The position numbers were made by a program, and so were the translations under genes. The notes under the pieces were generated by a model. It was given only the letters and a program-made list of their open reading frames with translations, did no database searches and was not told the origin of the DNA. Positions 17,477 to 19,679 of a DNA stretch of 64,000 bases are shown here, piece by piece. This DNA comes from a virus. Each line of letters begins with the position of its first letter. Positions within the stretch are counted from its first letter, which is position 1. The stretch lies in the UHGV virus genome UHGV-0026213; one strand, given 5' to 3'.

Positions 17477-17938
17477 ATGAAAATCTTCACTTCCTTTTTA
17501 ATCGCCCTTTTCGTAATCGGTTTCAATACTGCACACGCCGCTATCAATAACTGGGAACAAATACAAAACCCTGGCCAGGCAGTTTACGAAATTGAAGACA
17601 CCGCCGGAAACGGACTGTCTATCAACTGTGACACAGAAACTGCGAATCGCAAATTTTACGGTCGCATGGTTTGGTATTACGGTGAACCCGTAGGTGCAAC
17701 TAACGCGGAAGATAACACGTTGGATATTGTCGTAAACGGCAAGACCTATAACATCCCTACCGTGGACGGTAGTGACAAAGCAGAACACGCTTGGGTTGCT
17801 TTCGTTAATGCTATCGGTAATGCCAAAACTTTCAGTGTGAGTATCAATGGTAACGACACCGCTAACTTTACCGTAGAAGGCGAACGTCTGTCTGAAACTT
17901 TCTTCCAGAACTGTGGACACACCCGTCCTAACAAATAA
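17477..17938 (+). CDS. Secreted protein (signal peptide, 2 Cys)
   Basis: MKIFTSFLIALFVIGFNTAHA-AI signal peptide, GAAGGAG RBS. Cys residues near the start and the end of the mature chain (..SINCD ... FFQNCGH). Confidence 0.65.
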   Translation: MKIFTSFLIALFVIGFNTAHAAINNWEQIQNPGQAVYEIEDTAGNGLSINCDTETANRKFYGRMVWYYGEPVGATNAEDNTLDIVVNGKTYNIPTVDGSDKAEHAWVAFVNAIGNAKTFSVSINGNDTANFTVEGERLSETFFQNCGHTRPNK

Positions 17939-17960
17939 CTATTAGTCTTTTTTAGAGTGC

Positions 17961-18353
17961 GTGAAAATGAATATCAGAACTATACTTTATATCATCATTA
18001 TTTTCTGTGCGGTCGGAATTACTGGCACTTATGCTTTCGGTGATTCGGATGTCCGCTATTACGAACCGGCTCCTGACTCACCGATTATCAACCCGGATGA
18101 GACGCCTGCGTTAATGCGCAGTTTCGGTAAACTGCAAGTTTATCGTTTAGTGCGTGGTGAAACCTGTACGGGTTTACTCATTGCTGACACCCGTGCACAA
18201 GTCTACCAACGTCTAACCGATATCGCCTGCGAACAACCAAAAGTCATGTCGGTTAGTATCCATCCGCTATCAGTTGGTAACTATACCGCTGTGGACTTCT
18301 TTCACAACGCCGAATTAATCGGGCGCGTTACCTTAAATCGTCCTGCCGAATAA
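17961..18353 (+). CDS. Secreted or membrane-anchored small protein
   Basis: Hydrophobic N-terminus MKMNIRTILYIIIIFCAVGITGTYA. The start could be GTG 17961 or ATG 17967. Confidence 0.55.
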   Translation: MKMNIRTILYIIIIFCAVGITGTYAFGDSDVRYYEPAPDSPIINPDETPALMRSFGKLQVYRLVRGETCTGLLIADTRAQVYQRLTDIACEQPKVMSVSIHPLSVGNYTAVDFFHNAELIGRVTLNRPAE

Positions 18354-18371
18354 TCTAAAGGAGTAGTTATA

Positions 18372-18857
18372 ATGAAACGTTTACACACATTGATGTTCTT
18401 TCTGGTTTTCTTGTTTATCGGTACCACGCCAACTGTAGATGCGGCCTCCGTAGACGAATTGCTTACCTGCGATGGAAACGCTTGGGAAGGTCAGCCAAAT
18501 GCGTGCCCAAACATCAACGACTTGTACGATACCGATAAGTCGTTTAAAGCCGTTGTTGATAAAACATTAGACCCTGTGGGGCTGGATGGTATGTTCGGCT
18601 CTAAAGGTTACATGGATGGTCCTGGCGGTAACATGTATCCGGTAAACATCAACAACAAAATCTGGATTGAAAGTGGCGGTTGTAAAGCTAACGCTTGTGG
18701 TTGGGAATACATCGTAACGCTATACAACCCACACACCAAGAAACTCGTCGGCTATTACTACAACATCGACCCCGGTTATCTGATTTGGTTCGGTGATATC
18801 GGTGTTGCTGAATTCGCTTACCTGGTTAAGAAGTACGTAGAACAATCTAAATACTAA
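18372..18857 (+). CDS. Secreted protein, Ivy-like (candidate periplasmic lysozyme / lytic-transglycosylase inhibitor fold)
   Basis: Signal peptide MKRLHTLMFFLVFLFIGTTPTVDA. The loop GGCKANACGWEYIVTLYN..LVGYYY aligns by eye with E. coli Ivy SACKPHDCGSQRIAVMWS..MTGLFS (recalled). Confidence 0.4.
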   Translation: MKRLHTLMFFLVFLFIGTTPTVDAASVDELLTCDGNAWEGQPNACPNINDLYDTDKSFKAVVDKTLDPVGLDGMFGSKGYMDGPGGNMYPVNINNKIWIESGGCKANACGWEYIVTLYNPHTKKLVGYYYNIDPGYLIWFGDIGVAEFAYLVKKYVEQSKY

Positions 18858-18868
18858 GGACTTTTATC

Positions 18869-19279
18869 ATGAAAACTATCATTAATACTCTTCTCATTGC
18901 AATTGCTGTTCTGTTCTCTGTCAACGCTACAGCAAAGACAATACAGTTGCCAGACAATATTAAGTACGTCAATAGCACCGATGATTTCTATTGTACGGAA
19001 ATTGACGGCTTGTACTGTCAGGCAAAGAGCCTGTTTAAATACAAAGGTAGCAGATACGTATTCATCGTTGAGCAAGGTGGTGCCTGGTGCTACGACAGCC
19101 CAATGTCCGTACTCAACCTCGAAACGTGGAAGGCTCAGCGTCTCGAATACAACGACAAACGTCTGTGCTCTGGTAATAACAAACCATTCTTCAAAGTCGT
19201 AGATGGTGTGCCAATGGTAGGGATATTAGACACTTCGGAAAAACCTATCGTTGTAGCTATGGATAAACTTAAAATTTAA
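18869..19279 (+). CDS. Secreted 4-Cys protein (paralogue of 19290..19679)
   Basis: Signal peptide MKTIINTLLIAIAVLFSVNATA. Pattern C-x7-C ... GSRYVFIVEQGGAWC ... C. Confidence 0.6.
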   Translation: MKTIINTLLIAIAVLFSVNATAKTIQLPDNIKYVNSTDDFYCTEIDGLYCQAKSLFKYKGSRYVFIVEQGGAWCYDSPMSVLNLETWKAQRLEYNDKRLCSGNNKPFFKVVDGVPMVGILDTSEKPIVVAMDKLKI

Positions 19280-19289
19280 GGAGTAACTC

Positions 19290-19679
19290 ATGCGTCTCGT
19301 CTGCGTTTTAGCATTCTTCTTCTCCCTGAGTGTAGCAGCATCTACTCAAGTTAACGATTTACTGCTAACCCCAAACAACAATACCGATTACCAGTACAAT
19401 CCTCCTGGGTTTGAAGTTTGTGAAGTCGGTGAAACAATCTGCCAAGAAGTCGGCGCAGACGGGCGCTATATTCTGGTAAAAGCTGATGGTGGCACAATGT
19501 GTCCCGCAGGTTATTACTTTCTGCTCGATTCCGTCGCAAGAGAGGTTCTTCCTATCACCACAAAAACGTGCGACCCTACTGTTGTCTTAACTCTCGCTAA
19601 AAGCAAATCTCGCGACCGTTATCTGATTGTTATCGAAGAACGGGGCAAGATGGCTGGTGCTATCGAATTAGATCATTGA
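19290..19679 (+). CDS. Secreted 4-Cys protein (paralogue of 18869..19279)
   Basis: Signal peptide MRLVCVLAFFFSLSVAAS. Pattern C-x6-C ... DGRYILVKADGGTMC ... C. A terminator follows. Confidence 0.6.
   Translation: MRLVCVLAFFFSLSVAASTQVNDLLLTPNNNTDYQYNPPGFEVCEVGETICQEVGADGRYILVKADGGTMCPAGYYFLLDSVAREVLPITTKTCDPTVVLTLAKSKSRDRYLIVIEERGKMAGAIELDH

Follow-up and report, generated by a model that had tools for sequence, protein, structure and literature searches.

The closest described parallel to the system reported here is the Spackle protein (gp61.3) of phage T4, which is made early, acts in the periplasm and blocks the tail lysozyme gp5, thereby excluding superinfecting phages and making the cell resistant to lysis from without (PMC7677548, PMC7650644). 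A second point of reference is bacterial: Ivy, a protein of the periplasm, inhibits C-type lysozyme with nanomolar potency and contributes to the lysozyme tolerance of E. coli (PMC2267010). In vitro, inhibition by Ivy proteins extends to lytic transglycosylases, and a role in regulating the autolytic members of that enzyme class has been proposed for them (PMC10139938, PMC3660660). The nucleus-forming and related jumbo phages have mostly been studied for their cytoplasmic activities, and the two broad reviews of jumbo phages that we searched contain none of the terms periplasm, signal peptide and lysozyme inhibitor. Here we report, in a 64,000-nucleotide stretch of the virus genome UHGV-0026213 (hereafter the window), five consecutive genes (17477-19679, + strand) which we predict with high confidence to constitute an early operon loading the periplasm with small disulfide-bonded proteins. 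Judged from its sequence matches, the virus is a divergent SPN3US/phiEaH2-like jumbo phage. As to function, we tentatively favor a reading in which this cassette protects the wall and envelope of the infected cell from muralytic enzymes and superinfecting phages, with the product of gene 3, a remote relative of Ivy, as an active-site-loop inhibitor. Our literature searches found nothing on SPN3US gp180-183 or their relatives, on exported early proteins of jumbo phages, or on SPN3US in connection with signal peptides.

Organization of the five-gene operon

The locus comprises the following features:

17350-17379, + strand: intrinsic-terminator-like hairpin (17350-17370) and T-run ending the upstream unit, with an 8-bp stem of which 7 pairs are G-C, followed by TTTTATTTTT

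17403-17428, + strand: early-promoter-like motif TTTCAGATATATATTACTTAGGTGA of the phiKZ type, a predicted target of the virion RNA polymerase, recognized by pattern and published consensus

17427-17446, + strand: leader hairpin GAGAGUUA-cgau-UAACUCUC where the 5' end of the transcript is predicted (-6.9 kcal/mol, z -2.66)

17477-17938, + strand: gene 1, predicted exported protein of the YfjT family, 153 aa, two mature Cys, predicted signal peptide aa 1-21

17967-18353, + strand: gene 2 (alternative start GTG 17961), predicted exported core protein of the SPN3US gp180 family, 128 aa (130 from the GTG), two mature Cys

18372-18857, + strand: gene 3, predicted exported protein, distant member of the Ivy family, 161 aa, signal peptide aa 1-24, loop C104-KANA-C109

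18869-19279, + strand: gene 4, predicted exported four-Cys beta protein of the core, SPN3US gp182 family, 136 aa

19290-19679, + strand: gene 5, predicted exported four-Cys beta protein of the core, SPN3US gp183 family, 129 aa, with an invariant CPAGYYF

19690-19718, + strand: intrinsic-terminator-like hairpin GGCCCCG..CGGGGTC (19690-19710) and T-run ending the operon

The initial annotation of the window had described five tightly packed genes flanked by terminators at 17350 and 19690, and this layout was recovered in full: the five open reading frames (ORFs) are separated by gaps of only 10-28 nt, and on either side the block is bounded by a hairpin with a T-run. Genes 1, 3, 4 and 5 have strong Shine-Dalgarno sequences. 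For gene 2 the ATG at 17967 is more probably the start than the GTG at 17961, since its closest homologues begin with MNIKTILY and a GAGTG stands 7 nt upstream of that ATG. Measured against the closest related contig (L008), dN/dS is 0.04-0.15 across all five genes (0.15 for gene 1, 0.04 for gene 2), with similar values for the neighboring genes. This points to purifying selection and hence to five real, constrained genes. Their G+C content is 42-46%, the average of the window being 45%.

At the DNA level, matches to known phages are limited to positions 17372-17446, that is, to intergenic sites, in 33 records of SPN3US-like, Erwinia and Proteus jumbo phages. At the protein level, genes 2, 4 and 5 have syntenic homologues of 30-54% identity in 53 phage records. 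Two small genes follow the cassette and are succeeded by an SbcC/SMC-like gene (20891-23470), an order which is the same as in SPN3US. PADLOC returned no match for any of the five proteins, and the Pfam matches that they gave (DUF5114, ATP-grasp, AlgF) were discarded as sub-threshold noise.

A predicted phiKZ-type early promoter with a leader hairpin

The core motif TCAGATATATATTACTTAGGTGA (17406-17428) belongs to a 23-nt pattern with three matches in the window as against none in 100 shuffles. The three copies, at 13018, 17406 and 44199, are all intergenic and all upstream of genes on the + strand. The longer element TTTCAGATATATATTACTTAGGTGA contains the phiKZ early consensus TATATTAC and, with its flanking TTTCAR. 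and GTG, also fits the extended consensus TTTCARR..ATATTA..GTG of 201phi2-1, OBP and N1M2 (PMC7058600 Table 2). According to a review, motifs found bioinformatically in this way turned out, wherever a phage was profiled, to be early promoters whose center is close to -10 and which the virion RNA polymerase recognizes (PMC7598289). The element is kept upstream of the cassette in all the relatives examined (nine related loci). Because it agrees with the phiKZ-type early promoter consensus, the expression class of the cassette is predicted to be that of an early, virion-polymerase transcript. A scan for sigma-70 promoters gave fewer sites than in shuffled sequences and none upstream of the cassette; transcription by the host polymerase is hence not indicated. 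The motif M2 and the leader hairpin that had been noted in front of the cassette are both borne out, the former by its three matches against none in shuffles and the latter by its z of -2.7, and the motif can further be identified as the phiKZ-type early consensus.

Hairpins are present at the matching offset after the promoter in SPN3US, Huxley, pEa_SNUABM_29 and phiEaH2 as well as after the copy at 13018 of the window, with 6-8 nt between motif and stem-loop. The sequence of the stem is wholly different at the phiEaH2 and window-13018 copies, and that a hairpin is kept in spite of this points to a structural 5' leader. The far end of the unit is conserved likewise: a similar GC-rich hairpin ending in GGGTCCTTTTT follows the cassette in SPN3US, phiEaH2, Huxley and L008. 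Close relatives also have a terminator at the position equivalent to 17350-17379.

Some further observations were made on these elements. The promoter copy at 13018-13040 (+) is exact, while that at 44199-44221 (+), upstream of 44243-44791, has three mismatches. The stem-loop following the former (GGCUGAA...UUCAGCC, -12.3 kcal/mol) is unlike that of the cassette. In SPN3US (L001:3945-3975) and pEa_SNUABM_29 (L014:2198-2228) a strong terminator-like hairpin, GGCUACCUUCGGGUAGCC, with a T-run, lies between the promoter with its leader hairpin and the first gene of the cassette; attenuation or control of read-through may be its role, and the cassette of the window has no counterpart of it.

Predicted export signals and paired cysteines

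Candidate signal peptides were picked out by a rule-based screen for three features: an n-region whose net charge is not negative, a hydrophobic h-region of 8 residues or more without charged ones, and small residues at -3 and -1. Seven of the 67 non-overlapping ORFs of the window score strongly in this screen, and five of the seven are the consecutive genes of the cassette, a run whose chance is about 1e-4 by a hypergeometric estimate (a run of five, 67 ORFs, seven positives). All five products have small residues at -3/-1. Across homologues the N-termini are divergent, yet they retain the n/h/c layout of a signal peptide. The mature chains of genes 1 to 5 contain 2, 2, 4, 4 and 4 Cys respectively, at positions conserved in the homologues, and such even numbers are as expected for oxidative folding in the periplasm. 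Export of all five can therefore be regarded as well predicted, and the earlier description of signal sequences and paired cysteines in every member, like that of a dedicated, terminator-bounded unit of putative exported proteins behind a phage-specific promoter in a lytic jumbo phage, agrees with these data.

There is a very slim chance that the N-termini are not cleaved export signals at all, and that the proteins are membrane-anchored or structural (virion or assembly) components which cluster incidentally. What speaks for this is the h-region of gene 2, which at about 16-18 residues is long and could be a signal anchor; the homologues of gene 2, however, have short, classical, cleavable signal peptides, for instance MRVITTIIGLLFMANA with the cut before WG, and small -3/-1 residues occur throughout the set. 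Further, the conserved even numbers of cysteines fit folding under oxidizing conditions outside the cytoplasm, and Ivy itself is periplasmic. A structural role also finds no echo in the genetics and proteomics literature on SPN3US, from which gp180-183 are absent; as regards virion proteins this refers to the main text of the proteome paper, which does not name them among these.

A lipobox ([LVI][ASTVI][GAS]C) is found in none of the five N-termini, the Cys residues within the signal peptides of genes 2 and 5 lying outside a lipobox context. A lipoprotein mechanism, such as an exclusion of the T5 Llp type, was accordingly rejected. SPN3US gp180 has LAAC, which is not conserved among its homologues. 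The two strong scorers beyond the cassette are at 25671-26396, discussed below, and at 31619-32077. The latter (+ strand) encodes a 152-aa protein with a signal-peptide-like N-terminus (MMKMLLFIMMVFVGLVSNSYG) and no Pfam match.

The conserved core: genes 2, 4 and 5

Genes 2, 4 and 5 are the counterparts of SPN3US gp180, gp182 and gp183 (of the SPN3US_0180-0183 series) and form a core that is conserved across Seoulvirus, Erskinevirus and Machinavirus. Gene 2 matches phrog_9424 (E 5e-40) and has syntenic homologues in SPN3US, phiEaH2, Asesino, Huxley, Caitlin and pEa_SNUABM_29. Among 1.84 billion proteins it has 13 representatives, two of which are false positives: P0043 (TPR/CHAT) and P0045 (low-complexity) are repeat proteins and were set aside. 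On this distribution the family appears to be essentially specific to this phage clade. Gene 4 matches phrog_8968 (E 3.5e-33), with all four Cys conserved. The families of genes 4 and 5 align with each other in hhalign (95.8%, E 8e-9), detect each other in BLASTP (E 1e-3) and cross-match in PHROGs, and the SPN3US gp181 family aligns with that of gene 4 more strongly still (97.8%, E 1e-12). By these comparisons genes 4 and 5 are paralogues in a phage-only four-Cys beta family, in line with the paralogy earlier noticed between the last two genes.

The AlphaFold model of gene 5 has seven strands in its mature domain, for which the predicted local distance difference test (pLDDT) score is 80-88, and resembles two blades of a beta-propeller. 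Its structural matches in BFVD are exclusively uncharacterized proteins of Erwinia jumbo phages. Profile matches of genes 1, 2 and 4/5 in the PDB were judged spurious: they comprise antibody light chains, picked up via 'ISCTG', and the designed proteins ThreeFoil and H10. The known lysozyme-inhibitor families MliC/PliC, PliI and PliG gave no profile or fold match for genes 1, 2, 4 and 5.

These results bear on a different account of the cassette, to which we assign a minor though appreciable chance: the proteins would serve envelope takeover or counter-defense apart from peptidoglycan hydrolases, by binding host components in the periplasm or outer membrane such as receptors, porins, Tol-Pal, proteases or envelope-stress sensors. 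The proposed effects include masking of receptors, a lower loss of progeny on debris, blocking of envelope-acting defenses or bacteriocins, and stabilization of the envelope over the long cycle of a jumbo phage. Four of the five proteins lack similarity to inhibitor families, as such an account would have it, and the two-blade model of gene 5 recalls a scaffold that commonly binds proteins or glycans. The rapid exchange of modules described below would also fit, as it would at any conflict interface. On the other side, positive evidence for a specific target is lacking, PADLOC gave no match, and the sole member with a recognizable fold points to muralytic enzymes.

Gene 1 and the YfjT family

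BLASTP aligns gene 1 with YfjT of E. coli K-12 (b2637, in CP4-57) at 27% identity over 135 aa (E 2e-15), and nearly all of its homologues carry the precomputed assignment PF27224 'YfjT'. Membership is hence indicated by direct alignment on the one hand and, for PF27224, via the annotations of homologues on the other. Gene 1 also matches phrog_3429 (E 2e-7). Sister phages have two YfjT paralogues, of which one is 38% identical to the K-12 protein (E 1e-33). The assignment, a sequence-based one, gives ancestry and not mechanism; titles and abstracts in the literature reveal no functional characterization of YfjT. The initial annotation had found no assignable function in the cassette except for the Ivy-like member: this no longer holds for gene 1 as far as placement in a family goes, while it does hold for function, the family being without a known one. 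In tblastn against 50,697 phage records neither gene 1 nor gene 3 had a match, indicating that they are not general phage genes.

Gene 3, a remote relative of Ivy

The NCBIfam Ivy model NF007443 matches gene 3 with an E-value of 1.3e-3. The Pfam Ivy family (PF08816) is not reported for the gene 3 protein itself at E<=1. Among 12 members of the gene 3 family, NF007443 matches 11 and PF08816 eight (best E 7.7e-3), and no other family recurs. The family profile aligns GGCKANACGW...VGYYYNID with SACKPHDCGS...TGLFSTID of the Ivy structures 1gpq and 1xs0, and PGAP labels a truncated E. coli copy of gene 3 'Ivy family c-type lysozyme inhibitor'. Searches of the PDB with the single sequence gave chance matches, such as lactate dehydrogenase, Ivy having surfaced only with the profile. 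Compared to the inhibitory loop CKPHDC of Ivy, the loop CKANAC of gene 3 keeps the C-K...C-G frame in register and is missing the His, which is present in some E. coli alleles that read CKAHAC. The alleles among homologues of gene 3 (CKANAC, CKAHAC, CKSNAC, CKSDAC and CKANTC) thus have a fixed frame within which the presumed contact residues vary. The signal peptide consists of MKRLHT, then LMFFLVFLFIGTTPTV, then DA with A following the predicted cut, and an N-terminal signal sequence is conserved in 12 of 12 homologues, as predicted for a periplasmic protein. We conclude that gene 3 encodes a distant homologue of the Ivy family, the relationship being remote, and the tentative Ivy-like label given to it earlier is supported by the matches to Ivy hidden Markov models and by the loop in register. 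Of the periplasmic roles that had been proposed for the cassette, inhibition of peptidoglycan hydrolases is on this evidence the best-founded. We found no paper on phage homologues of Ivy.

A candidate for an internal target is also present. At 25671-26396 (+) there is a gene whose 241-aa product begins with a signal-peptide-like N-terminus (MYKSNWRNKMFRIFFLLLVTLFAFNAQA), has an SLT domain (E 8.8e-15) and is probably a Sec-exported or SAR-type (signal-arrest-release) endolysin. It is followed at 26969-27448 by a gene for a small protein with a hydrophobic N-terminal segment. One might thus suppose that the cassette controls the phage's own lysis, its exported proteins, and the Ivy-like one in particular, restraining this SLT enzyme or a holin/antiholin circuit until lysis in the manner of T4 RI-type lysis inhibition. 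An enzyme of this kind, exported by a signal-peptide-like N-terminus, would indeed need restraint in the periplasm, and Ivy proteins are the very ones proposed to regulate autolytic lytic transglycosylases. Nevertheless, we see only a small chance of this being the role of the operon: the cassette has an early-promoter motif, the SLT gene lies about 6 kb away with unrelated genes in between, and the core genes are conserved in phages without an Ivy-like gene. Moreover, an inhibitor made before its enzyme needs a mechanism of release, none of which is evident, and E. coli keeps gene 3 by itself, without any phage endolysin.

Modular composition and probable capture by E. coli

Comparison of loci distinguishes three types of composition. 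The Machinavirus loci have the core only (genes 2, 4 and 5). Those of Seoulvirus and Erskinevirus add to the core gp181, a third four-Cys paralogue, in the slot where the phage of the window has gene 3. In the clade of the window the core is joined by the Ivy-like gene and by YfjT genes, one or two in number, genes 1 and 3 thus being variable slots. An exchange is directly visible between L008 (7479-8335) and L009 (7477-7904), the flanks of which are about 99% identical: where the former has the mature domain of the Ivy-like protein together with gene 4, the latter has just one gp181-like gene. The breakpoints lie about 50 nt into the region coding for the signal peptide and at the junction of genes 4 and 5. 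The position of the first of these, inside the signal peptide, implies that the latter is reused as a recombination joint. L009 also has gene 2 truncated to 79 aa.

Homologues of gene 3 with 58-66% identity are found in E. coli, in CP4-57-like integrative islands among genes for dynamin, RdcB-family, patatin, DUF932, antirestriction, RadC and CbeA proteins. Directly upstream of the intact gene 3 homologue stands a decayed gene 2, colinear with the phage operon down to the intergenic ribosome-binding site. Remnants of gene 2 were located at L003:7680-7985 (GCA_964052465.1) and L019:2537-2925 (CP035884); most aligned columns are conserved at the nucleotide level, with a mean column identity of 79% in the three-way comparison, and the lesions of the remnants are independent, with a 79-bp deletion in one lineage and frameshifts and stops in another. 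Of 5426 complete E. coli genomes, 138 (~2.5%) contain the block or the gene 3 portion of it, and in 40 of these the remnant of gene 2 is there as well. Apart from such remnants, gene 2 is restricted to these jumbo phages, and for this reason the block of genes 2 and 3 has most likely moved from phage to bacterium, where the Ivy-like gene alone was kept.

Around the E. coli copies we also noted, at L003:7098-7640, a gene upstream of the Ivy-like gene for a 180-aa protein bearing a signal peptide. In several E. coli lineages (P0007, P0009, P0011, P0012) the N-terminal part of this protein forms an in-frame extension of the Ivy-like ORF, giving gene calls of 223-227 aa.

Hundreds of Salmonella enterica assemblies, and some of E. 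coli, contain proteins of the SPN3US gp182/gp183 type on contigs about 240 kb long, and L009, which is closely related to the phage of the window, comes from the Salmonella enterica assembly GCA_008966875.1 as a contig of 223 kb. This suggests frequent carriage, pseudolysogeny or contamination. Such contigs could be taken to mean that the cassette consists of 'moron' genes that benefit the host in a carrier or pseudolysogenic state, e.g. by protecting it from animal lysozyme or further environmental insults; the contribution of Ivy to lysozyme tolerance in E. coli, and the residence of YfjT and the Ivy-like gene in bacterial islands, would agree with this. We give this possibility a slight chance, since an early promoter of the virion polymerase implies expression in productive infection, the core genes are found in phages only, the phage allele of gene 3 is missing the loop His, and the contigs themselves may be contaminants.

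The exchange of modules, the variability of the loop and the fact that E. coli has kept only gene 3 are each in keeping with a conflict interface, though none of them identifies the target. Carried further, the same observations could describe a modular 'periplasmic shield' locus with swappable inhibitors of the muralytic or ejection machinery of incoming phages, in which gp180 and the gp181/182/183 family would add new families to the known periplasmic inhibitors, and whose Ivy-like module E. coli would keep in CP4-57-type defense islands as an exclusion factor against jumbo phages. We think this extended proposal unlikely to hold in its entirety, without dismissing it.

A proposed role in guarding the cell wall

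In the protective role that we favor, events might proceed as follows. Within minutes of infection, the virion-RNA-polymerase promoter would drive a five-gene transcript led by the stem-loop. The five products, with their Sec-type signal peptides, would reach the periplasm and fold there with disulfide bonds, so that the compartment is filled with binding or inhibitor proteins guarding the wall against peptidoglycan cutters and the entry of further phages. The CKANAC loop of gene 3 would enter the cleft that holds the active site of its target, a lysozyme or lytic transglycosylase. A candidate target class is the SLT domain on a tail protein of this type of phage. At 57807-63983 (-) the window encodes a protein of 2058 aa in which residues 1683-1769 form an SLT lytic-transglycosylase domain, an architecture which we take to match that of the virion-associated lytic transglycosylase gp181 of phiKZ.

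Several points weigh against this role. The first group concerns gene 3. The match to the Ivy model, at 18.6 bits, is far from the cut-off of 180, and the homology is remote. In hhalign the gene 3 family aligns with E. coli Ivy over 87 columns (E 4.8e-4) with a probability of only 32%. The predicted structure, with a pLDDT of 64 and with the loop below 50, consists of helices and an antiparallel sheet and has Ivy as its best match in the PDB. Asn takes the place of the loop His of Ivy, and because of this the gene 3 protein may not inhibit lysozyme at all. Nor, to our knowledge, has inhibition of SLT-family enzymes by an Ivy protein been demonstrated. Where lytic transglycosylases were assayed, with Ivy expressed without its signal peptide as Ivy[29-157], E. 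coli Ivy inhibited MltA and MltB weakly (PMC10139938). The second group concerns the operon as a whole. Genes 1, 2, 4 and 5 have no functional relatives in Pfam, PHROGs, NCBIfam, PADLOC and the structure and profile searches, which makes an anti-muralytic role for all five genes a case of guilt by association. Export is a prediction from the rule-based screen. In the literature we found neither transcript data for the SPN3US-like clade nor an experimental mapping of its promoters, and in phiEaH2/Asesino and Huxley extra genes are inserted between promoter and cassette; those examined have no signal peptide, and the promoter is hence not dedicated to exported proteins everywhere. Finally, we found no report of superinfection exclusion for SPN3US-like phages.

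Other large genes of the window

Upstream of the cassette, on the opposite strand, are two very large ORFs (1684-5892 and 5903-10225, both -) of 1402 and 1440 aa. The length of the former agrees with that of gp241, the virion RNA polymerase beta subunit of SPN3US, which has 1401 aa (PMC5105663).

Implications and comparison with known systems

A conserved early operon devoted wholly to proteins with predicted export signals suggests that re-engineering of the periplasm sets in within minutes of the start of infection. Should the Spackle-like reading prove true, the cassette would be the first candidate superinfection-exclusion or anti-muralytic system of this phage group, and would bring with it a phage-borne branch of Ivy with a variable inhibitory loop, as well as three new families of small periplasmic proteins for which clear assays are available. 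The pair of a decayed gene 2 and an intact gene 3 illustrates concretely how a bacterium can retain a single gene out of an operon of a lytic jumbo phage, and this capture yields a testable defense hypothesis for a gene found in about one in forty complete E. coli genomes. SPN3US-like phages serve as biocontrol agents against Salmonella and Erwinia, and exclusion modules would affect the design of phage cocktails.

Among known loci the nearest are those of SPN3US gp180-gp183 and of phiEaH2, Asesino, pEa_SNUABM_29, Huxley, Machina and Caitlin, which share synteny, flanks, promoter-hairpin and terminator with the cassette of the window. They differ from it in being without the YfjT-like and Ivy-like genes, and all their members are annotated as hypothetical. 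The published consensus of phiKZ-group early promoters does not include the conserved stem-loop found downstream of the motif here. K-12 YfjT, which is annotated with a signal peptide, shares such a peptide, two Cys and two Trp with gene 1; the phage copies, however, sit in a predicted early operon, whereas that of K-12 is in the cryptic prophage or island CP4-57. Ivy (YkfE; PF08816, NF007443; 1gpq, 1xs0, 1uuz) has in common with gene 3 its size, its signal peptide and the disulfide-bridged C-K-x-x-x-C-G loop. It differs in that gene 3 has an extra N-terminal pair of Cys (C33, C45), in that the His and the Pro/Asp of the loop are replaced, and in genomic context, gene 3 being found in a phage operon and in mobile islands of E. 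coli rather than at the chromosomal ivy locus.

With Spackle, finally, the likeness is one of logic: a small signal-peptide protein made early by a lytic phage, a logic which we propose for gene 3 and possibly for the whole operon. Pfam, PHROG and NCBIfam searches gave no homology of the five proteins to T4 gp61.3. Spackle is a small helical protein, whereas the model of gene 3 is Ivy-like alpha/beta and that of gene 5 all-beta. Also unlike T4, five genes are joined in one operon, and the tail enzyme of the jumbo phage is of the SLT type where that of T4 is a T4-type lysozyme. What is known from T4, then, is that lytic phages can have early periplasmic protection factors; what is new is the components, their organization in an operon, the setting in a jumbo phage and the capture by E. 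coli.

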